DNA from: Bacteroidales bacterium
Lineage (GTDB): Bacteria; Bacteroidota; Bacteroidia; Bacteroidales; UBA932
Direction: 5' to 3'
DNA: 64,000 bases
NCBI GenBank assembly: GCA_024398365.1
Contig: JAKSJG010000003.1
Span: 20,960 to 84,959 of the forward strand
Every line of letters begins with the position of its first letter. Within the stretch, counting starts at the first letter, position 1. This document shows, one piece after another, positions 21,372 to 43,512 of this stretch. The translations under genes were made by a program, and so were the position numbers. Below the pieces are notes generated by a model that ran no database searches, was not told the DNA's origin, and saw only the letters and a program-made list of their open reading frames with translations.

Positions 21372-21418
21372 TTTTTCTTTTTTTTGCACGATTGATATTT
21401 TTTTGCGACATTTACCGT

Positions 21419-21603
21419 CGCAATGGTTCTCTGTGTGAGGGATCTGCCCTCACTTGAGATTAAAAGGGAATCAGGTGAAAGACCTGAACAGTTCCCGCTG
21501 CTGTAAGTCAAGCGTCCGTACGGACTCGTCAGACATTCCTGCCACTGGCCGCCAAGGCCGGGAAGGCGTCTGCCGATGACAAGTCAGAAGACCTGCCACT
21601 GCG
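21419..21603 (+). promoter_or_regulatory. Cobalamin (B12) riboswitch
   Basis: It carries the conserved AAAAGGGAAtcaGGTGAAAgaCC core, CCCGCtGCTGTAA, GCCACTGgcc...GGGAAGGC and the B12 box AGTCAGAAGACCTGCC (21582-21597). A P1 helix is possible between cgcaatgg (21419-21426) and ccactgcg (21596-21603). Confidence 0.85.
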
Positions 21604-21968
21604 GTTTATTATTCAAACCTGCGGGTGACAGGTTTAGATGATGAGGATACGGACATCAATCAATCAGACAATCGGCGCCTCAGTGCGCTGCAGGGCAATG
21701 GAGTCGAAGCCACTGCCTTTGCCGGTATTATCTCCTGTACCGGTTGCCTCCGCATGCCCCTATGCGGCCGGTGTCGCCACTTACGGTACACTTGCCGCTC
21801 TTCCAACGGCCATTCAAAAAATAGATTCAGATATGAAAAATGTTTATTCGGCTCCTGAGAGCCGGGTTGTCCTCCTGTTTGAGGATGCTGTCATTGCCGC
21901 CAGCGGAAACAGCGGCTGTTCCAACTGGGAGTATTTCTGATATTCACAAACCAACCAAATAATCAATT

Positions 21969-23630
21969 ATGAAAACAAAATCATTATTGTCAGCAGCGGC
22001 TCTGTCCTTGCTGCTGGTCAGCTGTTCGGTCAACGACATCGACAGCGCCATTCCACAGTCTGAAGGAAACGGATTCACCCTTATCGGCGAGTGTTCACTG
22101 GGAACACGTACTGCATTCGGAACTCCGGGCCCATCATCAATACCGTTCACCTGGGCGGGCGGAGACTATGTATATTGCGGCACGCAGAAGAGTGCCGCGA
22201 TTGCAGAAGCTGCTTCCGTTGCCGAATTCAGGTTCAGCAAAGGCTCTGCAACCGACGGTACCGCCGTCATCTACAATATGACGGGAGAAAGCGCCACAGA
22301 GGCCAGGGTGCTTTCGGAGCAGGACGGTGAAAACCTCGGTGCAAGCGGTGACTTCGGTTACACTACCATCTCAAAAGGCTCATTCACCCTCAGCCATTAT
22401 ACCACATACCTCTGGCTCAATCCCTACTGCTCTGCGGGCGACATCACCGCGAAAGTGAAGTCTGTCAGCATTTCTGCAGATGCGGCGATTGCCGGCACGG
22501 CTGAATTCTTCACAGAAAACAAATGTTTCGGTGAAATCACAGGCGGGTCGAAGAGTGTCGATATCGTATTCTCCGAACCGAAAGCTCTCGGCAGTGCCGA
22601 ACCTCAGGGCGTATGGGCTGCCGCCGTCATTCTTCCTTCTACGGTCAGGAATATGGAAATCAGCTATTATTTCGATGACGCATCCGTTGCGGTAGTCAAG
22701 GTGGCTCGCGCGAACGGCCGTGTCCTTGAGGCCGGAAGGACCTATATGGTATCGTCCGACATTGCTTCAGGCGATATGATGGATGTGCTTACATTCGAGG
22801 ATGCCGACTACAGGGGTGACGGCAATTATGTATGTGCAGATGACTGGTCCTCTCTGATCGACGATCCGCAGTACGGCGGTCTTCTTCTCTATGGTGACGG
22901 CGGAATGGGTGTTTACGATATCAACGACGCTTATTGCTGGTACGACAAGGGAAATACCGAACTCTTCTCGAGACTCTCAGAAGGCTGGGGCGCCTGGGCA
23001 TTCTGGTCCGGCGGACACGCAGTCTCCAACTATGTCTCCGCTGACGTTGAGAGATACTGCGACTACGGTTCGCAGCTTACTGTCTACAAAGAGGGCGTAA
23101 CAGGCCTTCAGCGCGCAAAGGGTGGCCATAACGGTTCGGACAACTTCTGCATCCACTATGGTTATGCCGACAATTCCGGATACAGTCTTACTGAGGAAAC
23201 CCTTCCTTTCATCGAGTTCCACGATGGCATAAGCCGTGTCATTGACCATATGTACATCAACAACACCACCTATCTCCTCAAGTGCTGTGTCAGCGGCAAC
23301 GGTATGACAGCGTCCATCGGTGCTGACGACTGGATTAAAATCGTTGCAAAGGGTTACAATGCAAACGGTGAGTTCGTCAACAGCGCTGAATTCTATCTCT
23401 GTGCAGGTTCATCCATATCAGCCGACGGCAAGCTGACTCTTGTCAAGGAATGGACGAAGTGGGATCTCTCATCTCTCGGCAAGGTTGCCAGGGTGACATT
23501 CAATATGACAGGCTCTTCGGACAACGGATACGGTTTCAGCCAGCCTGCATACTTCGCATACGATGATGTCGCAGTACGTCGCGCAGCCACTTCCGCAAAT
23601 GCCGGCAGCAGCGAATTCGAAGTTCTGTAA
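21969..23630 (+). CDS. Surface lipoprotein downstream of the B12 riboswitch; C-terminal ~290 aa resemble the DUF4465-type domain of B12-locus (BtuH-like) proteins
   Basis: The lipobox is LLLVSCS. The C-terminal half (LTFEDADYRGDG...WSSLIDDPQYGGLLLYG...AFWSGGHAVSNY...GGHNGSDNFCIHYGY...MYINNTTY...DWIKIVAKGYNANGE...WTKWDLSSLGKV...FNMTGSSDNGYGFSQPAYFAYDDVAV) matches my recollection of DUF4465. The riboswitch context supports a corrinoid-related role. An HMM check is needed. Confidence 0.75.
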   Translation: MKTKSLLSAAALSLLLVSCSVNDIDSAIPQSEGNGFTLIGECSLGTRTAFGTPGPSSIPFTWAGGDYVYCGTQKSAAIAEAASVAEFRFSKGSATDGTAVIYNMTGESATEARVLSEQDGENLGASGDFGYTTISKGSFTLSHYTTYLWLNPYCSAGDITAKVKSVSISADAAIAGTAEFFTENKCFGEITGGSKSVDIVFSEPKALGSAEPQGVWAAAVILPSTVRNMEISYYFDDASVAVVKVARANGRVLEAGRTYMVSSDIASGDMMDVLTFEDADYRGDGNYVCADDWSSLIDDPQYGGLLLYGDGGMGVYDINDAYCWYDKGNTELFSRLSEGWGAWAFWSGGHAVSNYVSADVERYCDYGSQLTVYKEGVTGLQRAKGGHNGSDNFCIHYGYADNSGYSLTEETLPFIEFHDGISRVIDHMYINNTTYLLKCCVSGNGMTASIGADDWIKIVAKGYNANGEFVNSAEFYLCAGSSISADGKLTLVKEWTKWDLSSLGKVARVTFNMTGSSDNGYGFSQPAYFAYDDVAVRRAATSANAGSSEFEVL

Positions 23631-23935: not shown

Positions 23936-23948
23936 GTACCCGGAGCCG
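23936..23948 (+). repeat. 13-bp direct repeat gtacccggagccg (copy overlapping the tRNA-Leu 3' end)
   Basis: It is identical to 20820-20832. Twelve of its 13 nt lie inside the tRNA gene. Confidence 0.6.
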
Positions 23949-24020
23949 GGATCGAACCGGCACAGCCTTGCGGCCATTGGTGTTTGAGACCAACGCGTCT
24001 ACCGATTCCGCCATCCGGGC
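23937..24020 (-). tRNA. tRNA-Leu (anticodon CAA)
   Basis: The reverse complement is GCCCGGATGGCGGAATCGGTAGACGCGTTGGTCTCAAACACCAATGGCCGCAAGGCTGTGCCGGTTCGATCCCGGCTCCGGGTA. It has a 7-bp acceptor stem, anticodon stem TTGGT/ACCAA with loop CTCAAAC, a long class-II variable arm, T-loop TTCGATC and discriminator A. Confidence 0.9.
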
Positions 24021-24154
24021 TTTCGATAGCGATGGCAAAGGTAAATAAAGTTTCTTTTTTTCCAAAATGCCGCTGGAGATTAGTGAGGGCAAGAATGTTT
24101 ATAACTTGTTAAATTTTCTCCAAAGTCCCCTGCTTTTCGGTAGCTATTCCCAAT

Positions 24155-24162
24155 TAATTTTG
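24155..24162 (+). promoter_or_regulatory. Bacteroidota -7 box TAATTTTG upstream of nrdD
   Basis: It matches TAnnTTTG and lies 35 nt upstream of the ATG at 24198. Confidence 0.4.
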
Positions 24163-24197
24163 TTAACCCAAAACCGGAAAAACTAGCAACAAGACAC

Positions 24198-26300
24198 ATG
24201 GAAAACTCCGAGCTTTACATCGTAAAACGAGACGGAAAAAGCGCTGCGTTCGACATTAACAAGATCAAGAACGCCATCCGCAAGGCCTTCCTGGCCACAA
24301 ACAGCTATGCTACCGAAGAGGTCATCACAAGTATCCTGAGCCGTGTCAGCATCTCCAACGGCATGTCCGTGGAGGAGATTCAGAACCAGGTGGAGAACTC
24401 CCTGATGATCGAGAAGTACTACGCTGTGGCAAAGCATTACATGCTCTACCGCCAGAGACATACGGAAGACCGCGAGGTACGCGACCGTCTCAACTTCCTC
24501 ATTGATTACTGCTCAGCATCCAATCCTGCCACCGGCAGCAAGTACGACGCCAACGCAAACATCGAGAAGAAGAACATCGCAACCCTCATCGGCGAACTCC
24601 CGAAGCAGAGCTTCATCCGCCTCAACCGAAGGATGCTGACCGACCGCATCAAGGAGATGTACGGCAAGGAACTTTCCGACAAATATCTTGACCTGCTCAA
24701 CAAGCACTTTATCTACAAGAATGACGAGACCAGCCTCGCGAACTACTGCGCCAGCATCACCATGTACCCATGGCTCCTCCAGGGTACCATCCCTGTAGGA
24801 GGCAACAGCACGAGGCCTACCAACCTCAAGTCATTCTGCGGCGGCTTCGCCAACCTGGTATTCATCGTTTCCAGCATGTTGAGCGGCGCCTGCGCAACTC
24901 CTGAGTTCCTGATGTACATGAACTACTTCATCGAGATGGAGTACGGCGAGGACTATTACCTCCGTGCAGACGAGGTGGTGGATCTCTCCAAGAAGAAGCG
25001 CAGCATCGACAAGGTCATCACAGACTGCTTCGAGCAGATAGTATATACCATCAACCAGCCTACCGGAGCCCGCAACTTCCAGGCTGTGTTCTGGAACATA
25101 TCATATTATGACAAGTACTACTTCGAGAGCATCTTCGGAGAGTTCAGGTTCCCTGACGGCAGCCGCCCTCATTGGGATTCACTCAACTGGCTCCAGAAGC
25201 GCTTCATGAAGTGGTTCAACAAGGAGCGCACCAAGACCATCCTCACCTTCCCTGTGGAGACTATGGCTCTGCTGACAGAGAACGGCGACGCCAAGGATCC
25301 TGAGTACGCTGACTGGACAGCCCAGATGTATTCCGAAGGTCATTCATTCTTCACATACATGAGTGACAATGCCGACTCCCTCGCTTCCTGCTGCCGTCTG
25401 CGCAACGAGATCCAGGACAACGGCTTCAGCTACACCCTCGGCGCCGGCGGCGTTTCCACCGGTTCGAAGAGCGTGCTGACCATCAACCTCAACCGCTGCA
25501 TACAGTTCGCCGACAGGCAGGGCATACCTTACCTCGAGTATCTCGAAGAGGTCATCGACCTGATGCACAAGGTGCAGACCGCATACAACGAGAACCTGAA
25601 GTCCTTCTCTGAGAAGGGCATGCTGCCTCTCTTCGATTCAGGCTTCATCAATCTCAGCCGTCAGTACCTCACCATAGGTGTCAACGGTCTCGTGGAGGCT
25701 GCCGAATACCTCGGTATCCAGATCAATGACAATCCTCAGTACCTCAAGTTCGTCCAGGACGTGCTCGGCACCATCGAGAAATACAACAAGAAGTACCGCA
25801 GCAAGGAACTGATGTTCAACTGCGAAATGATCCCTGCGGAGAATGTGGGCGTGAAGCACGCCAAGTGGGACCGCGAAGACGGTTATGTCGTACCTCGCGA
25901 ATGCTACAACAGCTATTTCTATGTAGTTGAGGACGAATCCCTCAACATACTCGACAAGTTCCGCCTCCATGGCCGCGAATACATCGAGCATCTCACCGGC
26001 GGTTCGGCATTGCACATGAACCTTGAGGAGCACCTCAGCAAGGAGCAGTACCGCCAGCTGATCAGGGTGGCAGCCAAGGAAGGATGCAACTACTTCACCT
26101 TCAACATCCCTAACACCATCTGCAACGACTGCGGACACATAGACAAGCGCTACCTCCAGGAATGCCCTGAATGCCACAGCAGGAACATCGACTACGCCAC
26201 CCGTATCATCGGATACATGAAGCGTATCAGCTGCTTCTCACAGGCAAGACAGAAAGAGGCTGCAAGGCGCTACTATGCCAGCCAGCAGAGATTGAAATAA
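24198..26300 (+). CDS. nrdD: Anaerobic ribonucleoside-triphosphate reductase (class III RNR)
   Basis: 700 aa with an N-terminal ATP-cone (YIVKRDGKSAAFDINKIKNAIRKAF). The C-terminal zinc site is CNDCGH...CPECHS, and the glycyl-radical motif is ATRIIGYMKRI. Confidence 0.95.
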   Translation: MENSELYIVKRDGKSAAFDINKIKNAIRKAFLATNSYATEEVITSILSRVSISNGMSVEEIQNQVENSLMIEKYYAVAKHYMLYRQRHTEDREVRDRLNFLIDYCSASNPATGSKYDANANIEKKNIATLIGELPKQSFIRLNRRMLTDRIKEMYGKELSDKYLDLLNKHFIYKNDETSLANYCASITMYPWLLQGTIPVGGNSTRPTNLKSFCGGFANLVFIVSSMLSGACATPEFLMYMNYFIEMEYGEDYYLRADEVVDLSKKKRSIDKVITDCFEQIVYTINQPTGARNFQAVFWNISYYDKYYFESIFGEFRFPDGSRPHWDSLNWLQKRFMKWFNKERTKTILTFPVETMALLTENGDAKDPEYADWTAQMYSEGHSFFTYMSDNADSLASCCRLRNEIQDNGFSYTLGAGGVSTGSKSVLTINLNRCIQFADRQGIPYLEYLEEVIDLMHKVQTAYNENLKSFSEKGMLPLFDSGFINLSRQYLTIGVNGLVEAAEYLGIQINDNPQYLKFVQDVLGTIEKYNKKYRSKELMFNCEMIPAENVGVKHAKWDREDGYVVPRECYNSYFYVVEDESLNILDKFRLHGREYIEHLTGGSALHMNLEEHLSKEQYRQLIRVAAKEGCNYFTFNIPNTICNDCGHIDKRYLQECPECHSRNIDYATRIIGYMKRISCFSQARQKEAARRYYASQQRLK

Positions 26301-26776
26301 TGCTGAAATATTACAATTACGATATAGTATTCCAGGAAATACCTGACGAGACGACGCTTGCGGTCAACCTTACCGGATGTCCGTTTACCTGCGAAGGTTG
26401 CCACAGCCCTCATCTCCGTCAAGACATCGGAGAGCCTCTTACGCAAGAGGCTCTTCTTTCTGTTCTCGGCCGTTACAGAGGAGAGGTCACCTGCATCTGC
26501 CTGATGGGCGGCGATGCGCATCCTCTCGAAGTCCAGGAGATTGCCGGCTGGATACGCAGCGGCCTCAAGCTGAAGAGCGGCTGGTATTCGGGTGCGGCAA
26601 AGCTCGCGGAAGGCGTGGACACACGCCACTTCGACTATATCAAGATCGGTCCGTACATCGCCGCGAAGGGTGGCCTGAGCAGCGGGCAGACCAACCAGAG
26701 GCTCTACATGGTGGAGGCCGACGGCAGCCTGACGGACATCACATACAAGTTCGCGAAAAAGAACAAGCCACTTTAG
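26300..26776 (+). CDS. nrdG: Anaerobic RNR activating protein (radical SAM)
   Basis: The start is trimmed to the ATG at 26300 (TAATG overlap with the nrdD stop): MLKYYNYDIVFQEIPDETTLAVNLTGCPFTCEGCHSPHL. This is a CxxxCxxC radical-SAM cluster in the NrdG context. Confidence 0.9.
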   Translation: MLKYYNYDIVFQEIPDETTLAVNLTGCPFTCEGCHSPHLRQDIGEPLTQEALLSVLGRYRGEVTCICLMGGDAHPLEVQEIAGWIRSGLKLKSGWYSGAAKLAEGVDTRHFDYIKIGPYIAAKGGLSSGQTNQRLYMVEADGSLTDITYKFAKKNKPL

Positions 26777-36409: not shown

Positions 36410-36454
36410 CCTATCCCTGGCACTCAAGTGCCTGACAATCAATAATAACACTGT

Positions 36455-36494
36455 ATGTCACCTGCGCAAAATCGCGCAGGTGACATATGTTTTA
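36455..36494. terminator. Bidirectional intrinsic terminator between the convergent M14 and ABC-exporter genes
   Basis: A 13-bp perfect stem, atgtcacctgcgc (36455-36467) with gcgcaggtgacat (36474-36486), has a 6-nt loop. A T-rich tract follows on plus (atgtttta) and on minus (ttattatt). Confidence 0.75.
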
Positions 36495-36529: not shown

Positions 36530-38155
36530 CTAGCCGATGCGGAGAATCTCGTCAGCGGCGCAGGTGACAGCCTCGCGGTGGCTGATGAAGAGAATGGTCT
36601 TGCGGCCGCTGAAACGGGCCGTGAGATTGGCTAGAAGGGCCTTTTCGGTCTCGGCATCCACAGCCGAGGTCGCCTCGTCGAGAATCAGCACGCCACCCTT
36701 CTGCAGCAGGCTGCGCGCTATGGCGATACGCTGCGCCTGACCTTCGCTCAGGCCGCCGCCCTTCTCGCTGCACACCGTCTCCAGACCCTTTTCGAGATCA
36801 AAGACAAAATCGGCCACAGCGCAATGCAGGGCGTCACGCAGCTCCTCTTCGGTGGCATCGCTCTTGGCCAGCAGCAGATTCTCGCGAATGGTGCCGCTCA
36901 TCAGGCTGTTGCCCTGAGGCACATACATGAAATTGCATCGTGTGGCGGCGCAGACAGGCTTGCCGGCGAGGAGTATTTCGCCCTTCTGCGGAGTCAGCAG
37001 CGCGAGCACAAGCTTGGTCAGCGTGCTCTTGCCGGCTCCCGTGAGGCCTGCGATGGCAGTCATCCTGCCACCCTTGAAAGTATATGAGAAATCCTTGAAG
37101 ACAGGCTTCTCCTGCCCGTCATAGGCGAATGTGAGATCCTTCACTTCAATCTCCGGAGCCTCGCCTACCTCCAGCCTCTCGGACTGGCTCTCAAGCGGGA
37201 GATCCTGCAGCTCCATAAGACGCTCAACCGAAGTCAGTGCGTGAATGAATGCAGGTATATGACGTGAAATATCCGCGATAGGCCTCTGCACCTGACCGAC
37301 CAGTTGCAGGAATGCCGTCATCATACCGTAGGTCACAATTCCCTTGTTGATACCGAACACGCCCCAGAGGAATGCCGCACCGTAGCCTGCCATGAATCCG
37401 AAACTCATGAAAGTGCGGGCGACTGCATTGTAGTTGAGGCGGGTGATGGTATTGCCCAGCACGTCCTTCTGCAGCAAGCCCATCCTGCTCAGGACCTTCT
37501 CGGTGCCGATGAGAGTCAGCACCAGTATCCTGTTCTGCAGATTCTCCTGCATGTGACCCTGGATCTCACTGTCCTTGGCGCGTATTGCGTCTGTCAGCCT
37601 GCGGAGGGTGCGGAAAAACATCCTGCTGCCCACCACGGCGGCACACATCAGTATCAGCAGCACCCAGGCCAGGCCCGGTGCCATCGAAAGCAGGAAGATG
37701 GAGGCGGCCAGCAGCTGGCAGAGGGTCACTATGGCGTCCGGCAGCCTTGAGCAGAGCAGGTCCACGACCACGCGTATGTCCTCCTCGAGCCTGTTCACCA
37801 TATCACCGCTGTGGAATGCCTCGCGGCCGTTCCAGCGGCTCCGGATGACATGCGCGAAGGTGTCGTACCTCATTGCGTTCTGTGTCTTGACTATGCTCAG
37901 ACTCTCCCAGTATGAGGCCGCAATGCCGGTCAGCAGCTGCGCCAGCATTATGCCTACCATTATGCCGGCATTGGCGCTGAGACTGGCGTCAACGATATTG
38001 CCGGTGGCGATATCCACCAGCCTCTTGCATATCCAGACGAAGCTCAGGGAGGCGGCAATGCGCACAAGGCCTATGAGGATGCTCACCAGCACCCTCCATC
38101 TGACAGGCTTGAACATCCCGCAGAGTCCCTTCCAGCAGCTTCTGAAATCCTTCAT
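36530..38155 (-). CDS. ABC exporter, fused permease/ATPase (MsbA/bacteriocin-exporter type, no C39 domain)
   Basis: 541 aa with an N-terminal 6-TM domain. Walker A is GLTGAGKSTL, the signature is LSEGQAQRIAIARSLL and Walker B is VLILDEATSAVD. Confidence 0.9.
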   Translation of the reverse strand: MKDFRSCWKGLCGMFKPVRWRVLVSILIGLVRIAASLSFVWICKRLVDIATGNIVDASLSANAGIMVGIMLAQLLTGIAASYWESLSIVKTQNAMRYDTFAHVIRSRWNGREAFHSGDMVNRLEEDIRVVVDLLCSRLPDAIVTLCQLLAASIFLLSMAPGLAWVLLILMCAAVVGSRMFFRTLRRLTDAIRAKDSEIQGHMQENLQNRILVLTLIGTEKVLSRMGLLQKDVLGNTITRLNYNAVARTFMSFGFMAGYGAAFLWGVFGINKGIVTYGMMTAFLQLVGQVQRPIADISRHIPAFIHALTSVERLMELQDLPLESQSERLEVGEAPEIEVKDLTFAYDGQEKPVFKDFSYTFKGGRMTAIAGLTGAGKSTLTKLVLALLTPQKGEILLAGKPVCAATRCNFMYVPQGNSLMSGTIRENLLLAKSDATEEELRDALHCAVADFVFDLEKGLETVCSEKGGGLSEGQAQRIAIARSLLQKGGVLILDEATSAVDAETEKALLANLTARFSGRKTILFISHREAVTCAADEILRIG

Positions 38156-38164
38156 CAGTAAGAA

Positions 38165-38434
38165 TTATTCGGCTACAAGGCCGGCTTCAACCCATTTCTC
38201 GAGCAGGGCCTTTGCATCCCTGGCTGCCACTTCCTCTTCCACCTCGTACTTCTCGAGCAGGAGGTCCTTGAGGTCATCCGCATTGAAATCCTTGCCCTCA
38301 ACGCTTTCCCACAGATATGCAGCGGTGCCGTTGAGTGAGATCATCTTGTTGAAATTGGTCTGTGCGAGGCCTTCGCCCACGATGATGTACTCCTTGCCGA
38401 GAGTACGCATCTTGAATCCTTCTATTATTTTCAT
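38165..38434 (-). CDS. PqqD-family protein (RiPP recognition element-like)
   Basis: 89 aa. The sequence ...YIIVGEG......MISLNGTAAYLWESVEGKDFNADDLKDLLLEKYEVEEEVAARDAKALLEKWVEAGLV follows the PqqD pattern (LNxTaxxIWxxl.g..t.eel...l...Y.v....a..Dv..fl..L...gl). Confidence 0.8.
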   Translation of the reverse strand: MKIIEGFKMRTLGKEYIIVGEGLAQTNFNKMISLNGTAAYLWESVEGKDFNADDLKDLLLEKYEVEEEVAARDAKALLEKWVEAGLVAE

Positions 38435-38868
38435 ATCAGTCTTAATATTCTTCTGTAAACAGCTAAAATGTATCTTCTTACCGGAAGCAGGCGCTTCCAG
38501 ATGCGGCCCTTGCCCGGCTCGAATTCCCGGCCGGAGGCCTTGATGATGCGGACCACCGTGCCGCAGATGTCCGCCTTGGTGCAGTGCTCCGTGCCGCGGA
38601 TGTTGCCGTCACCCATAAGTGTGACCTTGTCGCCGTCCAGGGCGAATACGCGGTGCAGCACGTAGCGTCCTTCCTGAAGGTATGCCAGACAGATATCCCC
38701 GACTTCCACGTCATCCTTCTTGCGGAGGGCAACGCTGTCCCTCTCGCTGCGCAGATAAGGCAGCATGCTGGAGCCCTTGGCCATGATGATGACCTCCTGA
38801 TCGTTGTCCAGCAGTCTTCTCACCTCGGCGAGGAGGATCTCATTAGGTATGACCTTCTTCTCTATCAT
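38431..38868 (-). CDS. S24/S26-superfamily peptidase, ER/SipW-type (Ser-His) motif set, no TM anchor
   Basis: 145 aa. Box B is KGSSMLPYL, box C is VGDICLAY, box D is VLHRVFAL (His where bacterial P-type signal peptidases have Lys) and box E is LMGDGNIRG. There is no N-terminal hydrophobic helix, and the C-terminus is a basic amphipathic tail. Confidence 0.75.
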   Translation of the reverse strand: MIEKKVIPNEILLAEVRRLLDNDQEVIIMAKGSSMLPYLRSERDSVALRKKDDVEVGDICLAYLQEGRYVLHRVFALDGDKVTLMGDGNIRGTEHCTKADICGTVVRIIKASGREFEPGKGRIWKRLLPVRRYILAVYRRILRLI

Positions 38869-38871
38869 CTC

Positions 38872-39783
38872 TTATTCCGCTTCGGTAACGGCCTTGTGGC
38901 AGACGCGCGCCGCCTCTTCGTCAGGCAGGCAGTTGAGGGTGAAGCAAGGCACTCCGATGGCGACCTTCTCTATGGTGCTGTGCATGCCGTCCGCTATGCT
39001 GCGTATGGCGCGGAAGCCGGAGCAGGAAGGGTAAACGGCCGCATACGCCTCGACTATCGAGCTGCGCGTAATGATATTCTCCTTGAACTGGTTCAGGCGC
39101 ACGATGGCTCCCACCGGGGCGCAGTCATTCTTGTAGCAAGGTGTCTTGCCGCTCCACGGTGAGCCATAGACCCGTATCACGCCGTCCTCGTCAGCACGGA
39201 GTATCGGGTTGTCGTCATTGAGCAGCACACTGCCGTCAATGTACTTGAGCCAGAGGTTGCTGTGCGTGCTCTTGCCGGTGCCGCTCTTGCCGAGGAACAT
39301 ATAGCCCTTGCCGCCGTTCTTGATGACTGACGAATGCATCTCCAGAGTGCCGCGGGTGGCGGTGGTGAATGCGTAGAGTATCATCATCGCATTGTTGACG
39401 GCGAAATCGGCTATCCTGTCTGAAGCCACGGCCAGCTTGCCGCAGCTGAAATCCTCGCTGGCGAGCAGTCTGGCGCAGATAGGCATCTTCTGCACAGGGG
39501 CCATCTCGATGATCCACTGCACCTCTTCGCAAGCCTTGCCGTCCTCATCCGCCCTGCGGTAAATCTCTATGCGCGGCTGGTCCTCCTCTTCGGCCTTCTC
39601 CACATACACAGGCACCTTGTTCATCCTTTCCATCGAATCCACAAATTCGAGAGAGAAGACTGTCTCCGCATCGAAGACTTCCGTCTCGAACGGTGCGTAA
39701 TTGGTGAGGCGCTGCCAGAGCTCTTTGCCATCGTCCATTGTGAATGCGAACCGGTGTCCGGCTACTATGAAATGCTTTGTCAT
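38872..39783 (-). CDS. HPr-kinase-related / PEPCK-like P-loop protein
   Basis: 303 aa. The P-loop FLGKSGTGKSTHSNLW is followed by LLNDDNPIL and YGSPWSGKT. This pattern recurs in HprK-related kinases of peptide-modification clusters. The start ATG overlaps the PiT stop (ATGA). Confidence 0.6.
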   Translation of the reverse strand: MTKHFIVAGHRFAFTMDDGKELWQRLTNYAPFETEVFDAETVFSLEFVDSMERMNKVPVYVEKAEEEDQPRIEIYRRADEDGKACEEVQWIIEMAPVQKMPICARLLASEDFSCGKLAVASDRIADFAVNNAMMILYAFTTATRGTLEMHSSVIKNGGKGYMFLGKSGTGKSTHSNLWLKYIDGSVLLNDDNPILRADEDGVIRVYGSPWSGKTPCYKNDCAPVGAIVRLNQFKENIITRSSIVEAYAAVYPSCSGFRAIRSIADGMHSTIEKVAIGVPCFTLNCLPDEEAARVCHKAVTEAE

Positions 39784-40817
39784 AAGAAAAGTGCTATCAG
39801 TTTATAGAAAAGTCCGGAGATGACTATCGTCGCCGGGATGGTGAGCACCCAGGCCCAGACTATATTTTTGGCGGTCATCCACTTGACGCTCTTGACACCG
39901 TCCGTGAGGCCCGTGCCTATGATGGCACCGGTCACGGTGTGGGTAGTGGATACCGGGATGCCGAGGAATGCGGTGGTGATGAGGGTCAGGGAGCCGGAAA
40001 GTTCGGAGCAGAAGCCTGTCACAGGAGTGACCTTGGTCAGGCCGCTGCCCAGGGTCTTGATGACCTTCCATCCGCCGATTATGGTACCCATGGAGATCAG
40101 CAGGTATGAGACTATCATCAGCCAGTATGGCACGAACTGTCCTTCATCCACATTGTAGAGCAGCTGGAGCAGGCCGTTGTCCGGATTCTGCGCCAGCGCC
40201 GCTGAAAGCAGTATGGCTACAATGCCCATGGTCTTCTGTCCGTCGTTGAGGCCGAAGCTGAATGAGAACACTGCCGATGAGAAGAGCTGAAGCCTGCGGA
40301 AGGCATTTTCGGATTTCTTGTAATTGGAGTTCTTCAGCACCTTCATGAAGAAGCAGTGCATGAAGAATCCCAGCACCATGCCGATGAGAGGGGAGAGCAC
40401 GATGAAGAGCAGTATGTTGCCAATGCCGCTGGCGATGAGGTATTCGCTGCCGAAGCCGAACCACACCGGGCCGATGAGGCCGCCGATGAGGGCGTGTGAT
40501 GCCGAGATAGGCAGGCCGAACTTGGTGCAGACGAAGGTCCAGAAAGCGGCGCCGGTCAGTGCCGCCAGGATCACGAAGTGATCGATTTTGCCGGCATCCA
40601 CGATGCCCTTGCCCATGGTCTCAGCCACAGAAGGAGGGATGATGAAGAAGACGAAGCAGGATATGAATATCCAGAACCCCGCCCACCATACGGCCCTCTT
40701 CGGGGTGAGCGCCTTGGTGGCGACCACCGTGGCGATGGCGTTGGCCGCGTCGTTCATGCCGTTCATATAGCTGAACACCAGCGCAATGACGGCAGCTATG
40801 ATAACAACGGTCACCAT
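39780..40817 (-). CDS. Inorganic phosphate transporter, PiT family
   Basis: 345 aa and polytopic. Both halves carry the PiT signature, GMNDAANAIATVV at the N-terminus and VSTTHTVTGAIIG in the C-terminal half. Confidence 0.9.
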   Translation of the reverse strand: MVTVVIIAAVIALVFSYMNGMNDAANAIATVVATKALTPKRAVWWAGFWIFISCFVFFIIPPSVAETMGKGIVDAGKIDHFVILAALTGAAFWTFVCTKFGLPISASHALIGGLIGPVWFGFGSEYLIASGIGNILLFIVLSPLIGMVLGFFMHCFFMKVLKNSNYKKSENAFRRLQLFSSAVFSFSFGLNDGQKTMGIVAILLSAALAQNPDNGLLQLLYNVDEGQFVPYWLMIVSYLLISMGTIIGGWKVIKTLGSGLTKVTPVTGFCSELSGSLTLITTAFLGIPVSTTHTVTGAIIGTGLTDGVKSVKWMTAKNIVWAWVLTIPATIVISGLFYKLIALFL

Positions 40818-40820
40818 TGT

Positions 40821-41471
40821 TTATCCCATTTTTACGAGTATGCAGCGTACTGTGTCGGCAAAGTCCTTTGCGGCGTCAGTCACATCTTCGAGAGCCTGTA
40901 CGATACTCTTCTTCTTGATGAGTTCGATGGCGTCCTTCTCTTCCTTGAACAACTTGCTGAGGAATGAAGCGTATATCTCGTCAACGATGTGCTCTATCTC
41001 CTTCAGTTCATTGCAGAGCTTGTCAATCTCGCTGACATCCTTGCGTATGGTCTCGAACTTGTTGGTGATGGCAAGTATGGCGTGGGCTGCCTGATCTATG
41101 TATCCGGCCATCTCGGTGATTCTCTCATCAGTTCCGGCAGGCTGGTATATGGCAATCTTCTTGGCCGAGTCGCGGATGATATCCACCACCGTATCAATGT
41201 CCTGTGCGAGTTCGTGTATGTCATCGCGGTCAAAAGGGGTTACGAATGCCACCAGCAGTTCATCGGAAATCCTGGTGGTATAGGTATCACCGGTAGTCTC
41301 GCATTCCTTGATGCGGTGTGAGAGGATTTCACGATGGTCAGGGTTCTCTTCTCTGGCAAGTTCCATGAGGAGGCCTGAGGCTTTCACGAGATTTTCGGCA
41401 GCCTGTATGAAAAGAGGGAAGAATCTCTTCTCCTTGACTACGAAAAGTTGCAGGAAATTGTCAAGTTTCAT
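40821..41471 (-). CDS. DUF47-family (PhoU-like) phosphate transport regulator
   Basis: 216 aa and all-helical. It is the usual partner gene immediately upstream of pit (KEKRFFPLFIQAAENLVKASGLL..., ...DRDDIHELAQDIDTVVD..). Confidence 0.8.
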   Translation of the reverse strand: MKLDNFLQLFVVKEKRFFPLFIQAAENLVKASGLLMELAREENPDHREILSHRIKECETTGDTYTTRISDELLVAFVTPFDRDDIHELAQDIDTVVDIIRDSAKKIAIYQPAGTDERITEMAGYIDQAAHAILAITNKFETIRKDVSEIDKLCNELKEIEHIVDEIYASFLSKLFKEEKDAIELIKKKSIVQALEDVTDAAKDFADTVRCILVKMG

Positions 41472-41494
41472 ACTTCTTTATAAAGTTTAATCCG

Positions 41495-41502
41495 CAAATA
41501 TA
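41495..41502 (-). promoter_or_regulatory. Bacteroidota -7 box (TATATTTG on minus) for the DUF47-PiT-...-ABC operon
   Basis: The plus strand reads CAAATATA. It lies 24 nt upstream of the ATG at 41471. Confidence 0.45.
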
Positions 41503-41546
41503 CAAAAATAACGGAATTATTTGCAGTACTCCCGCCGGACATCGCT

Positions 41547-41640
41547 GCCGGAGGGGGTTGGAAGCGAAGGCGATTTGCGAGAGCGGATAATGGCGGAAGC
41601 CTGCATGGCGGTGATTAGCGCCATCCTTTGCCCGACGACC
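41547..41640 (+). repeat. Repeat module A, copy 1 (94 bp)
   Basis: The sequence gccggagggggttggaagcgaaggcgatttgcgagagcggataatggcggaagcctgcatggcggtgattagcgccatcctttgcccgacgacc is 92/94 identical to 42604-42697. It contains the hairpin atggcg-gtgattag-cgccat. Confidence 0.9.
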
Positions 41641-41808
41641 CCAAGAGGGCATTGCTGCCGCCAGGTGATTTTCAACATTGATGTAGCGCGGACTCCGCTC
41701 AAAAAGGAAAAAGCGCCATCAGGCGCTAGCGCAGGCCGCATTTGGGCCCCATTAATGGGGTAGCGGCCGAAGCGGCGGGGTGCGGGGCAGAGCCCTGCCT
41801 TATAACAA

Positions 41809-41893
41809 GGCCGCCGCCATGCGGTTGACGCCCCGCTCGAGACAATTTTCGCCTGAGTCCCAACCTCCTCCGGCGCAAGCCCGGCGGCGGGAT
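41809..41893 (+). repeat. Repeat module B, copy 1 (85 bp)
   Basis: The sequence ggccgccgccatgcgg..cccgctcgagacaa.tttcgcctgagtcccaacctcctccggcgcaagcccggcggcgggat is about 81/85 identical to 42753-42837. Its ends (ccgccgcc and ggcggcgg) are complementary. A third partial copy lies at 42435-42480. Confidence 0.9.
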
Positions 41894-41948
41894 TGAGGTT
41901 TGGGTGACAAGGTCCGTCCTCTGATGCCATTTTGAGAGGGGTTAGCAG

Positions 41949-42164
41949 CACCCAGGGCCTCAAATCGAGGCATGGGTGCCAGAGATGTGTCCTGAAGGAC
42001 CGTCAGAAGGGGGATGCCGGAACCCAAGGTCGCAAATCGAGGCTTGGGTGCCGGGTACCGGCCTCGGAGACTGGTCTGACGGGGTGGTCCGTCACCCAAA
42101 GGCCGAAATCAAGTTTTCGACCAGATTCGGTTCAGGAACGTAAAAGGTTCTGGGACGGACTTTT
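41949..42164 (+). repeat. Three units with exact 72-bp periodicity, each opening with a hairpin (c/a)acccaNgg..caaatc(g/a)ag..
   Basis: The units start at 41949, 42021 and 42093. Examples are cacccagggcctcaaatcgaggcatgggtg and aacccaaggtcgcaaatcgaggcttgggtg. Only the first ~30 nt of each unit is conserved. Confidence 0.7.
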
Positions 42165-42228
42165 CCGCTCAGCATGTGGTATCCGATTTGTGCTGTAATC
42201 GGCAATGTCTTGGTACATAGATATATGC

Positions 42229-42266
42229 AAAAAGACCCTCCTGCGAAATCCAGCGAGGGTCTTTTT
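42229..42266. terminator. Orphan bidirectional intrinsic terminator inside the non-coding repeat region
   Basis: aaaaagaccctc (42229-42240) pairs with gagggtcttttt (42255-42266), with additional ctg/cag pairing in the loop. It has an A5 run on the left and a T5 run on the right. No CDS lies within 750 nt on either side. Confidence 0.7.
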
Positions 42267-42494
42267 GTAAAGTCTTAAGTATCAGTATTTAGCGATTTGC
42301 GCTTGCGATTGACAAGCGGATTGGCGTATGAACTGATGGGTCGATGATAGTATATGGCAGAGCATTCCTCAGCCCAAGCCATGCTGAATTTACCCGCTTG
42401 AGTCCCGCAGCCATAATCCGGCTGAATTCACCCGTCTGAGCCCCAACTGCCTCCGGCGCAAGTCCGACGGCGGGATGCGAGCCGGGGCATCAAT

Positions 42495-42608
42495 GAGGTA
42501 CGGAGCCAGAAGGCCCTGGGAGGGCATTTTTGTCCGTACCTGTTGGTGATGGAAACTGCCGATGTGCCTCAGAAGGCTGTCTGGGGCAGGTCGGGATCGG
42601 GTAGCCGG
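42495..42608 (+). repeat. Isolated copy of the 116-bp unit (module C)
   Basis: The sequence is gaggtacggagccagaaggccctgggagggcatttttgtccgtacctgttggtgatggaaactgccgatgtgcctcagaaggctgtctggggcaggtcgggatcgggtagccgg. Confidence 0.9.
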
Positions 42609-42697
42609 AGGAGGTTGGAAGCGAAGGCGATTTGCGAGAGCGGATAACGGCGGAAGCCTGCATGGCGGTGATTAGCGCCATCCTTTGCCCGACGACC
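42604..42697 (+). repeat. Repeat module A, copy 2 (94 bp)
   Basis: It is 92/94 identical to 41547-41640 and in the same orientation. Confidence 0.9.
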
Positions 42698-42752
42698 GTT
42701 AGACATAGTCGAAGCGCAGCGGAGACTATGGCTAAAAGGGAGGAGTTGGATG

Positions 42753-42837
42753 GGCCGCCGCCATGCGGCTGGAGCCCCGCTCGAGACAACTTTCGCCTGA
42801 GTCCCAACCTCCTCCGGCGCAAGCCCGGCGGCGGGAT
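42753..42837 (+). repeat. Repeat module B, copy 2 (85 bp)
   Basis: See copy 1. It is followed by the same linker (gcgagccggggcatcaat) and a 116-bp unit, as is the partial copy at 42435. Confidence 0.9.
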
Positions 42838-42855
42838 GCGAGCCGGGGCATCAAT

Positions 42856-43260
42856 GAGGTACGGAGCCAGAAGGCCCTGGGAGGGCGATTTTGTCCGTAC
42901 CTGTCGGGGATGGAAACTGACGATGTGCCTCAGAGGGCTGTCTGGGGCAGGTCGGGATCGGGTAGCCGGGAGAGGTGCGGAGCCAGAAGGCCCTGGGAGG
43001 GCATTTTTGTCCGAACCTGTTGGTGATGGAAACTGCCGATGGGCCTCAGAAGGCTGTCTGGGGCTGGTCGGGATCGGGTAGCCGGAAGAGGTACGGAGCT
43101 GGAAGGCCCTGGGAGGGCATTTTTGTCCGTACCTGTCGGGGACGGAAACTGCCGACAGGCCTCAGAGGGCTGTCTGGTGCAGGTCGGGATCGGGTAGCCG
43201 GGAGAGGTACGGAGCTGGAAGGGCCTGGACGGGCGATTTTGTCCGTACCTGTCGGGATGG
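42856..43260 (+). repeat. Tandem array of ~3.5 copies of the 116-bp unit (module C)
   Basis: The units start at 42856, 42972, 43088 and 43204, an exact 116-bp period with about 90% identity between copies. Each unit contains ggtacgga...tccgtacc and ccag..ctgg inverted repeats. The last copy is truncated. Confidence 0.9.
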
Positions 43261-43479
43261 CAAGATGGAATGTGATCAAGCCCGGCCGAAGCGGCAGCCC
43301 CGTTTTTGCGCCTGCTATCCAAATACCTGTTATTCAGTGGCTTATGCGAACAGCCTTGCACCAAATGACTCAAGGCTATTGCTTGAATGCGCTGATAGCC
43401 AGCGATTTGGGTGGCAGCGCCTCCGCCATCCGGGCCACGCTATTTTTTCCGGGGCTGTACATAAATCTTAAAAAATGAG

Positions 43480-43487
43480 TAAATTTG
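43480..43487 (+). promoter_or_regulatory. Bacteroidota -7 box TAAATTTG upstream of paralog 2
   Basis: It matches TAnnTTTG and lies 25 nt upstream of the ATG at 43513. Confidence 0.5.
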
Positions 43488-43512
43488 CATAAAGTACATA
43501 TTATTGCCGAAA

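Follow-up and report, generated by a model that had tools for sequence, protein, structure and literature searches.

What substrate does an operon serve that encodes a kinase, a peptidase, a peptide-recognition protein and an exporter, when no peptide precursor is encoded within it? This question is raised by a 64,000-nt stretch of DNA from Bacteroidales bacterium (assembly GCA_024398365.1, contig JAKSJG010000003.1, positions 20,960-84,959 of the forward strand), here called the window. Four tightly packed minus-strand genes occupy 39783-36530 with gaps of +3, -4 and +9 nt, exactly the open reading frames (ORFs) given in an initial annotation made from the letters alone. They encode a predicted LppK-like peptide kinase (ScmC/HprK-related, with a PEPCK-fold P-loop; 38872..39783, 303 aa), an LppS-like leader peptidase without a transmembrane (TM) segment (SipW/archaeal-type signal-peptidase fold, Ser/His/Asp; 38431..38868, 145 aa), a discrete RRE (recognition element for RiPPs, peptides that are made by the ribosome and modified after translation) of the PqqD family and lasso-B1/LppB type (38165..38434, 89 aa), and an LppD-like ABC half-transporter exporter, a membrane domain fused to a nucleotide-binding domain and without a peptidase domain (36530..38155, 541 aa). 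A bidirectional hairpin terminator, detected on both strands, closes the operon at 36452..36489 (stem of 15-16 bp, 8 G-C pairs). As the initial annotation had observed, neither the operon nor its immediate flanks contain a precursor-like ORF, a cyclase, a B2 protease or a radical SAM (rSAM) or YcaO gene. We consider it likely that these genes work in trans, as a machine that matures and exports ribosomal peptides of the linear polyphosphorylated peptide (LPP) type, with precursors dispersed in the genome.

LPP clusters were described in Bacillota by Popov et al. (Nat Commun, May 2026; PMC13381572). Their core consists of the HprK-like kinase LppK, the discrete RRE LppB, the SipW-like archaeal-type peptidase LppS, the MsbA-like transporter LppD and the NTP transferase LppN, and the precursor LppA has a YxxPxVLxHQxIxFETxxS leader followed by a variable core; in Paenibacillus alginolyticus the cluster is ordered lppA-K-B-S-D-N (PMC13381572). 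In experiments, LppK added several phosphates to core Ser3, LppS required LppB for leader removal and performed poorly without prior phosphorylation, the LppS variants S29A, H68A and D93A were inactive, and deletion of lppN changed none of the detectable products (PMC13381572). In a crystal structure of LppB with the leader, D70 forms a hydrogen bond with the leader Tyr and N33 fixes the kink at the Pro (PMC13381572). The gene set of the window operon equals the tested core LppK/B/S/D, which is a first argument for the LPP-type reading. The sequence of steps put forward in the initial annotation, RRE-guided phosphorylation, leader removal and then export, is the one demonstrated for the same gene set in Paenibacillus (PMC13381572), and by analogy it would apply here; the annotation's label "uncharacterised" is out of date, because a system of this kind has been known, for Bacillota, since May 2026.

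The 303-aa protein had been called a P-loop protein of the HPr-kinase-related type, and this is borne out. Searches of Pfam and NCBIfam gave weak matches to PEPCK_ATP, ScmC and HprK_rel_A; the best NCBIfam match is ScmC (TIGR04249) with 23 bits against a cutoff of 125, followed by HprK_rel_A with 16 against 200. More than 7738 homologs were found (homolog clusters), carrying the precomputed Pfam family PF27840 'ScmC'. Across 17 homologs of 52-77% identity, the Walker A motif GKSGTGKST(H) at residues 165-174, NDDNP at 189-193 and PWSGKTPCY at 209-217 are invariant. The AlphaFold2 (AF2) model has a pLDDT of 93 and matches ATP-PEPCK (E 5e-7) and HprK/P (1knx, 1jb1, 1kkl; E 1e-5 to 1e-4) in Foldseek. 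Because the invariant motifs and the structure matches agree, the protein is, as judged from the model, a P-loop protein whose fold and nucleotide-binding motifs are those of a PEPCK/HprK-fold kinase rather than of a well-characterised non-kinase family, and this fold together with the invariant Walker A and NDDNP motifs argues for the LPP-type reading.

The same family matches could instead place the cassette with the SynChlorMet (Scm) or HPr-rel-A type, an rSAM-dependent or otherwise different peptide system: ScmC and then HprK_rel_A are the kinase's best NCBIfam matches, its homologs carry PF27840, and the best NCBIfam match of the 89-aa PqqD-family protein is the GeoRSP PqqD family. ScmC (TIGR04249/PF27840) and HPr-rel-A (TIGR04352-04355) do belong to the same broad HprK-related superfamily and likewise have a PqqD-family partner. 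The kinase scores are nevertheless far below the family cutoffs, as is that of the PqqD-family protein (24 bits against 100), and the rSAM/SPASM partners are lacking here, with no such gene recurring in any related locus. A serine peptidase and an ABC exporter are not known to be part of Scm or HPr-rel-A cassettes. A literature search for 'ScmC' and 'SynChlorMet' returned unrelated acronyms only. We therefore regard an Scm-like or HPr-rel-A system as highly improbable.

With 26.9 bits, the 145-aa protein passes the cutoff of Pfam Peptidase_S24. A TM segment is absent, and the C-terminal helix is basic and amphipathic. Across 44 sequences of the family S34, M35, P37, H72, R73, G86, D87 and N89 are invariant and E94 is 98% conserved; over 42 Bacteroidales sequences S34 (in the setting G-x-S-M-x-P), H72 (in L-H-R), G86-D87-x-N89 and E94 vary little or not at all. 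At the general-base position there is no Lys; the invariant H72 stands there, so the protein has no Ser/Lys dyad of the S24/S26A kind. Because the general base is His and not Lys, the peptidase is assigned on sequence to the archaeal/ER/SipW (S26B-like) Ser/His/Asp type rather than to LexA-like S24 or bacterial S26A peptidases, and the Pfam match reflects the common fold only. Thus, of the earlier description as a TM-less S24/S26 peptidase, the absence of a TM segment and the signal-peptidase fold stand, and the family assignment had to be changed.

Compared with LppS by BLASTP, the peptidase is 24% identical over 84 aa (E 9e-5); S34 pairs with S29, H72 with H68 and GDGN with GDTN (Supplementary Data 1 of PMC13381572 supplied the LppS, LppB and Paludibacter sequences used for comparison). 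Ser and His of the catalytic set thus fall in register with those of LppS, in support of an LPP-type function. The N-terminal helix (residues ~9-21, NEILLAEVRRLLD) would correspond to the LppS helix that contacts LppB. The single-sequence AF2 model of the peptidase is of low confidence (pLDDT 60) and its fold search gave noise only, so that the assignment rests on the LppS alignment. A search of the PDB with the peptidase sequence alone gave nothing useful, and the family profile produced weak matches only, to the C-terminal domain of LexA and to SpsB.

The designation of the 89-aa protein as PqqD/RRE is supported by a Pfam PqqD match of 60.7 bits. Its two best PDB sequence matches are the lasso protein TfuB1 (6jx3_B) and LppB (9x8z_B), and the pairwise comparison with LppB gives 26% identity over 57 aa (E 4e-5). 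N35, Y63 and D73 are invariant in the family and align with LppB N33, Y60 and D70; the RRE thus appears to retain the residues that bind a YxxP leader. That the nearest solved relatives are TfuB1 and LppB, with the leader-binding Asp and Asn invariant, again points to an LPP-type machine. The 541-aa protein is a fused ABC exporter, as the initial annotation had it: ABC_membrane spans residues 23-292 and ABC_tran 354-497, and there is no C39 peptidase domain. In NCBIfam it comes closest to MsbA, with 221 bits, below the family cutoff.

The arrangement is conserved well beyond this contig. A kinase scan was made with one genome per GTDB species and 80 loci were inspected; relatives of the kinase were confirmed in at least 596 species, and all 80 inspected loci belong to Bacteroidales or to unclassified gut or rumen metagenome-assembled genomes. 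Among the 58 species-level loci with enough flanking sequence for adjacency counts, the peptidase gene adjoins in 57 and the RRE gene in 55, and kinase, peptidase and RRE genes stand together in 54. The ABC gene follows the RRE gene in 40/58, an NTP_transf_5 gene is adjacent in 16/58 (~28%), and all four window genes are present in 37/58. This is far beyond chance and shows that the cassette is conserved; the co-conservation (54/58 for the trio) favors its action as one LPP-type machine. Other neighbors are unrelated: the 433 neighboring genes make up 272 clusters, those that recur being housekeeping genes (FtsK, DUF4290, Lnt, ApbE, LolA-like).

One clade, which we call Limimorpha-type (L020, L034, L035, L038, L040-L042, L045, L049, L064, L090, L092; L numbers denote related loci), carries the cassette in the order kinase, peptidase, RRE, NTP_transf_5, peptide (K-S-B-N-peptide). 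The gene for Lnt (apolipoprotein N-acyltransferase) lies upstream of it, and the loci that are long enough have genes for a lipoprotein, a FadL-like outer-membrane protein and a TPR protein downstream.

The breadth of this distribution among housekeeping genes (FtsK, LolA-like, Lnt and the phosphate transporter gene PiT) bears on an explanation without any peptide maturation, namely a regulatory or housekeeping module of a kinase, a LexA/UmuD-like self-cleaving protein with a protein substrate, and an unrelated lipid or drug exporter. It would also accommodate the weak LexA profile matches and the MsbA likeness of the ABC protein. The peptidase, however, uses His and not Lys as general base and has neither a DNA-binding domain nor one with a self-cleavage site, the discrete RRE is never missing and its YxxP pocket is intact, and the flanking genes vary freely. 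A PADLOC run gave generic ABC ATPase matches only, and no known defence or other system fits it. Taken together, these findings leave such a module with hardly any credence.

A lasso origin deserves closer attention. The initial annotation had noted a resemblance to kinase-containing lasso clusters, and this is justified: RRE, HprK-like kinase and ABC exporter, with NTP_transf_5 where it occurs, correspond to the accessory set of paeninodin-type clusters. The operon might on that account be a former paeninodin-type biosynthetic cluster that has lost its cyclase and B2 protease and is now non-functional or residually functional; the closest solved relative of the RRE is a lasso B1 protein, and the leaders of the peptides described below resemble lasso leaders. 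Decay would not be expected to leave genes intact and adjacent in at least 54/58 loci at 42-78% identity with invariant catalytic residues, nor a dedicated serine peptidase always where B2 would be. Neither a lasso cyclase nor B2 was found in the operon or the examined parts of the window, no Asn-synthetase-like cyclase occurs in any of the ~90 related loci, and neither a B2 protease nor an rSAM gene recurs across them; a PP-loop (SGGxDS) search for lasso cyclases returned only ORFs of ~440 aa in the FtsK neighborhood, which by size and PP-loop motif are probably TilS. The peptide cores, moreover, lack a consistent ring-forming Asp or Glu at position 7-9. A decayed lasso cluster is accordingly very unlikely.

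If the operon is an LPP-type machine, its precursors should be found outside it, and a family of small peptides in the related loci fits this role. Clustering of all small ORFs in those loci recovered a 40-50-aa peptide with the sequence MKKMNKxYEAPxAEvIEMQMPxVLMxS followed by a hypervariable tail; in ten loci of the Limimorpha-type clade it immediately follows the NTP_transf_5 gene, confirmed on independent contigs. A motif search then located similarly built peptides in other settings: in L023 the peptide gene is divergent from the kinase gene, in L027 it comes right behind the ABC gene, and further YxxP peptides lie 2-9 kb from the cassette in L016, L032, L033, L070 and L076. YxxP peptides therefore stand directly beside the cassette in three independent arrangements, and the leader motif occurred 14 times against 1.45 expected from shuffles, two observations that argue for the LPP-type reading. 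Profile searches yielded 481 and a further 75 small proteins, and an exhaustive search gave at least 2067 clusters (50% identity, E<=1e-3) of peptides of 33-88 aa.

Members of the family share a common plan. They have a leader with a short basic N-terminus, Y-x-x-P, E-V-(I/V)-E-(I/V/M/L) and hydrophobic residues at +15/+16 from the Tyr; at the junction, C, M or A stands at +17 and Ser at +19 in 71-88% of members. The core is hypervariable, with a median of 18 residues, and consists of 23% Gly, 13% Ser, 11% Asp, 8% Glu and ~1% Lys+Arg+His. In position, the conserved Ser corresponds to the LppA phospho-acceptor Ser3, albeit one residue further from the Tyr (+19 instead of +18), in keeping with an LPP-type substrate. 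No Pfam or NCBIfam model covers the peptides, and the sole curated-family hint, a 14.5-bit match of one leader, is to the paeninodin lasso precursor family, which likewise counts toward the LPP-type reading. We propose from sequence that these YxxP peptides are the precursors missing from the operon. In one member, P0318, the leader-core module is duplicated internally (...APSTTVVELKTQGIICVSGNVNATM, twice), suggesting multi-core precursors.

Each of the 24 distinct peptide ORFs studied has a same-strand gene for a signal-peptide protein 25-200 nt downstream (in L016, L020, L023, L027, L032-L035, L038, L040-L042, L045, L049, L064, L070, L076, L087, L090, L092, L094 and L095 and at 21833-23630 of the window). 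A lipobox was recognized by a crude test in 20 of the 24 downstream genes and by inspection in two more, compared with a pass rate of ~10% among background genes. The downstream proteins are mutually unrelated: they include DUF4465 proteins, proteins with Fib_succ_major/Lcl_C domains and one BspA-type leucine-rich-repeat protein with a ubiquitin-like domain, and several have no known domain. There are about nine independent peptide/secreted-protein pairings, and contig L095 carries two pairs. In the Limimorpha-type loci the link between peptide and lipoprotein may in part be mere shared synteny, but the pairing recurs in other lineages, where the genes are arranged independently.

The window itself contains one such peptide. 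The initial annotation had placed the substrate elsewhere, which is right as regards the operon, but a candidate lies inside the window, and in some relatives the peptide is beside the cassette. This candidate LPP-type precursor (21833..21940, plus strand, coding to 21937 with the stop codon ending at 21940; 35 aa, MKNVYSAPESRVVLLFEDAVIAASGNSGCSNWEYF) has the YxxP leader and matches the family spacing exactly, with V at +7 and +8, hydrophobic residues at +15/+16, A at +17 and S at +19; the conserved Ser is Ser24. It is the sole match to a motif of this type in the 64-kb window. A cobalamin riboswitch precedes it (21407..21614, plus strand; RF00174, 107 bits), and 28 nt past its stop codon begins a gene for a BtuH-like (DUF4465) surface lipoprotein (21969..23630, plus strand; DUF4465 144 bits, lipobox LLLVSCS). 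DUF4465 is a BtuH-type B12-binding domain (PMC8941943, PMC13398666). Beyond the BtuH-like gene, the region 23937-26776 holds a tRNA gene on the minus strand (23937-24020) and a gene for NrdD, the anaerobic ribonucleotide reductase (24198-26300).

Although an exact look-up in the assembly collection found no called gene on record for the window peptide, it is orthologous to peptide P0251, MEKKNYVQPEIEVLQIEIEKGFAASGDAGKSAWDEY (35% identity over 34 aa, E 2e-6). A P0251-type peptide in L087 precedes a DUF4465 gene whose product is 39% identical to that of the window; L087 is among the only three loci returned by a metagenome scan with the DUF4465 protein. In L094 the order is intact, with riboswitch, peptide, DUF4465, DUF5074 and TonB-dependent receptor. 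Because P0251-type peptides hold the same position in L087 and L094, the small ORF (sORF) at 21833-21940 is, on this comparative basis, a conserved gene, and having orthologs in the same riboswitch/peptide/DUF4465 context adds to the case for the LPP-type reading. The order riboswitch, YxxP sORF, DUF4465 can be followed across species (window 21407-23630, L094 9606-11962, L087 3-1652), and the peptide cores of this DUF4465-linked subfamily end in a conserved W-[D/E]-x-[Y/F].

The pairing also invites the explanation that the machine is LPP-like and the YxxP sORFs are not its substrates; they might, for instance, be upstream ORFs or leader peptides with a controlling role over the lipoprotein genes behind them, the true precursor being encoded elsewhere. 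The regular position of all 24 ORFs before a signal-peptide gene, the riboswitch ahead of one subfamily, which would fit a cis-regulatory role, and the distance of most peptides from any cassette are what this explanation would predict. It would not predict a conserved leader followed by a hypervariable core, a RiPP signature unexpected of an upstream ORF, nor a leader motif that is the one recognized by RREs of the lasso and LPP type, nor adjacency to the cassette in three independent gene orders with a Ser conserved at the LPP phospho-acceptor position. We judge this explanation unlikely, though less so than any other alternative considered here.

Under the preferred reading, that of a trans-acting LPP-type machine, the PqqD-family RRE would bind the YxxP leader of the small precursors as an added beta-strand, and the HprK/PEPCK-fold kinase would use ATP to phosphorylate the conserved Ser behind the leader (+19 from the Tyr; Ser24 in the window candidate), possibly repeatedly. 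The soluble SipW-like peptidase, docked on the RRE-leader complex through its N-terminal helix, would then cut off the leader near [I/L/F]-[C/M/A]-x-S, and the ABC half-transporter would move the acidic, Gly/Ser-rich core across the inner membrane to the periplasm. The precursors would come from outside the operon, each from a gene immediately 5' of one for a lipoprotein or secreted protein, the candidate in the window being 21833-21940. Direct observation covers the gene content, the folds, the catalytic and recognition residues, the co-conservation, and the peptide family, both that it exists and how it is built.

Several points weigh against this reading. Phosphorylation, the cleavage site, export and the pairing of peptide with operon are carried over by homology from the Paenibacillus system. 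The kinase is likened to LppK through its modelled fold and its motifs. LppS D93, one of the residues needed for activity, aligns with a variable Thr, and it is the adjacent E94 that is the conserved acid. The peptidase and the RRE share no more than 24-26% identity with LppS and LppB, and the RRE family profile matched lasso TfuB1 alone in the PDB (E 2e-5) and not LppB at E<=1; because of this low identity and of a profile nearer to lasso B1 than to LppB, either common descent with the Bacillota LPP systems or a parallel assembly of lasso-type parts could account for the likeness. An NTP_transf_5 gene of the LppN type was not found in the 64-kb window, and in the Limimorpha-type clade no ABC gene adjoins the cassette. 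Most of the YxxP peptide genes examined lie far from any cassette, so that the link between peptide and cassette rests on adjacency in a minority of loci and on the leader motif. In the window the candidate is ~14.6 kb from the operon, and its assignment to the operon, made by analogy, is the least certain link.

The pairing of peptides and secreted proteins suggests a wider role, which we put forward tentatively. In Bacteroidales the LPP-type machinery may serve widely and in trans, as one operon maturing many dispersed YxxP peptides. Each peptide would share its transcript and its function with a particular surface lipoprotein or secreted protein, BtuH-like cobalamin-capture proteins under B12-riboswitch control among them. 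If so, the exported phosphorylated acidic peptide would act together with the lipoprotein, for instance as its partner subunit, as a factor that escorts or sorts it, or as a cofactor handling a ligand or metal, and a previously unrecognised layer of Bacteroidales cell-surface biology would come into view. LPP peptides were described only in 2026; the pairing with secreted proteins and the cobalamin riboswitch provide the first concrete, testable lead to the role of such a phosphopeptide, and the lead favors a part in nutrient capture or in assembly of the cell surface over one in antibiosis. The analysis also defines a large small-protein family that lacks a Pfam or NCBIfam model.

Two genes for phosphate-related proteins lie immediately upstream of the operon, inside the range 36530-41471 that the initial annotation gave, and are co-oriented with it. 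The gene for a PiT-family phosphate transporter (39780..40817, minus strand; PHO4, 283 bits) overlaps the kinase gene by 4 nt, and that for PhoU_div (DUF47; 40821..41471, minus strand; PF01865, 80.6 bits) is the first of the six-gene run, with a Bacteroides-type -7 box, TATATTTG, just 5' of it at ~41490-41497. We considered whether the two might be core parts of the system, as a phosphate supply for a polyphosphorylating kinase, and rejected this because they adjoin the cassette solely in the window and its closest relatives (L004-L009); they are lineage-specific neighbors. Their presence in one operon with a putatively polyphosphorylating kinase could be a coincidence or a phosphate-supply link. 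Further upstream, 41500-43500 is ~2 kb of non-coding, GC-rich, G-skewed DNA with nested repeats: five tandem copies of a ~116-nt unit at 42495-43256 (with a 53-nt core at 89-100% identity), two 94-nt copies at 41547-41640 and 42604-42697 (98%) and two 85-nt copies at 41809-41893 and 42753-42837 (95%).

Compared with the paeninodin-type lasso clusters (PadeK, PsmK/PsmN, Bsf), the cassette shares recognition of a [Y/W]xxP leader by an RRE, an NTP_transf_5 partner and an ABC exporter, together with an HprK-like kinase, which in those clusters phosphorylates a Ser of the precursor. It differs in having neither the Asn-synthetase-like cyclase nor the transglutaminase-like B2, and a serine peptidase would remove the leader instead, so that linear products are expected. 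With Bacillus subtilis SipW and the eukaryotic and archaeal Sec11-type signal peptidases (S26B), the window peptidase has the Ser/His(/Asp) arrangement and the GDxN motif in common; unlike these, it lacks a TM anchor and would be a cytoplasmic, RRE-dependent enzyme acting on a RiPP leader rather than on a Sec signal peptide.

The closest of the sequences compared are from Paludibacter propionicigenes (WP_013444635.1, WP_013444633.1), also a member of the Bacteroidales, which falls in cluster 8 of the sequence similarity network (SSN) of PMC13381572 with an 'other' RRE. The authors listed SSN cluster 8 and neither analysed it nor assigned it to LPP (PMC13381572). The window peptidase is closer to the peptidase domain of the Paludibacter SpI-ABC protein (27% over 113 aa, E 3e-7) than to LppS, and the window RRE is closer to the Paludibacter 'other RRE' (27% over 79 aa, E 1e-9) than to LppB. 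The Paludibacter peptidase forms the N-terminal part of a fusion with the ABC exporter, whereas the window has separate genes. Such Bacteroidales peptidase-ABC fusions (P. propionicigenes WP_013444635.1 and Porphyromonadaceae OIP81682.1, 743-747 aa) are analogous to C39 peptidase-containing ABC transporters, and by that analogy they support a functional coupling of the separate peptidase and exporter genes here. The cassette is not mentioned in a Bacteroidales RiPP-mining paper.

The nearest characterized counterpart is the LPP system of Bacillota. Both comprise an HprK-like kinase, a discrete lasso-type RRE, an MsbA-like ABC exporter and a SipW-like Ser/His/Asp leader peptidase, which is ~145-150 aa long and has a C-terminal helix, and both lack a macrolactam cyclase; in both, the peptides have an N-terminal YxxP leader, a conserved Ser near the leader/core junction and a hypervariable core. 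Gene order is similar and the NTP_transf_5 transferase optional, although only ~28% of the Bacteroidales loci have it. Past YxxP, the leader motif departs from the Bacillota consensus. The junction reads [I/L/F]-[C/M/A]-x-S, with Ser at +19 from the Tyr, here and F-E-T|x-x-S, with Ser at +18, in LppA, and the cores are acidic and Gly/Ser-rich with almost no Lys or Arg here but Gly/Asn/Lys-rich in LppA. The Bacteroidales loci are not embedded in capsule loci, unlike those of Bacillota, and their host is Gram-negative, so that export would deliver the peptide to the periplasm. Whereas the LPP precursor is encoded in its cluster, the candidate precursors at most loci, including the window, are dispersed, each before a lipoprotein or secreted-protein gene, a pairing of which nothing similar was reported in the Bacillota study (PMC13381572). 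The genetic logic would thus be different, with one maturation operon serving many remote precursors. The authors described LPP as "restricted to the Bacillota" (PMC13381572); our comparison suggests that a counterpart, an already-known kind of system in a new phylum, the Bacteroidota, is common in gut and rumen Bacteroidales, where its scale, its trans arrangement with remote precursors, the invariable coupling of precursor and lipoprotein gene and the B12-riboswitch control of one subfamily are new.

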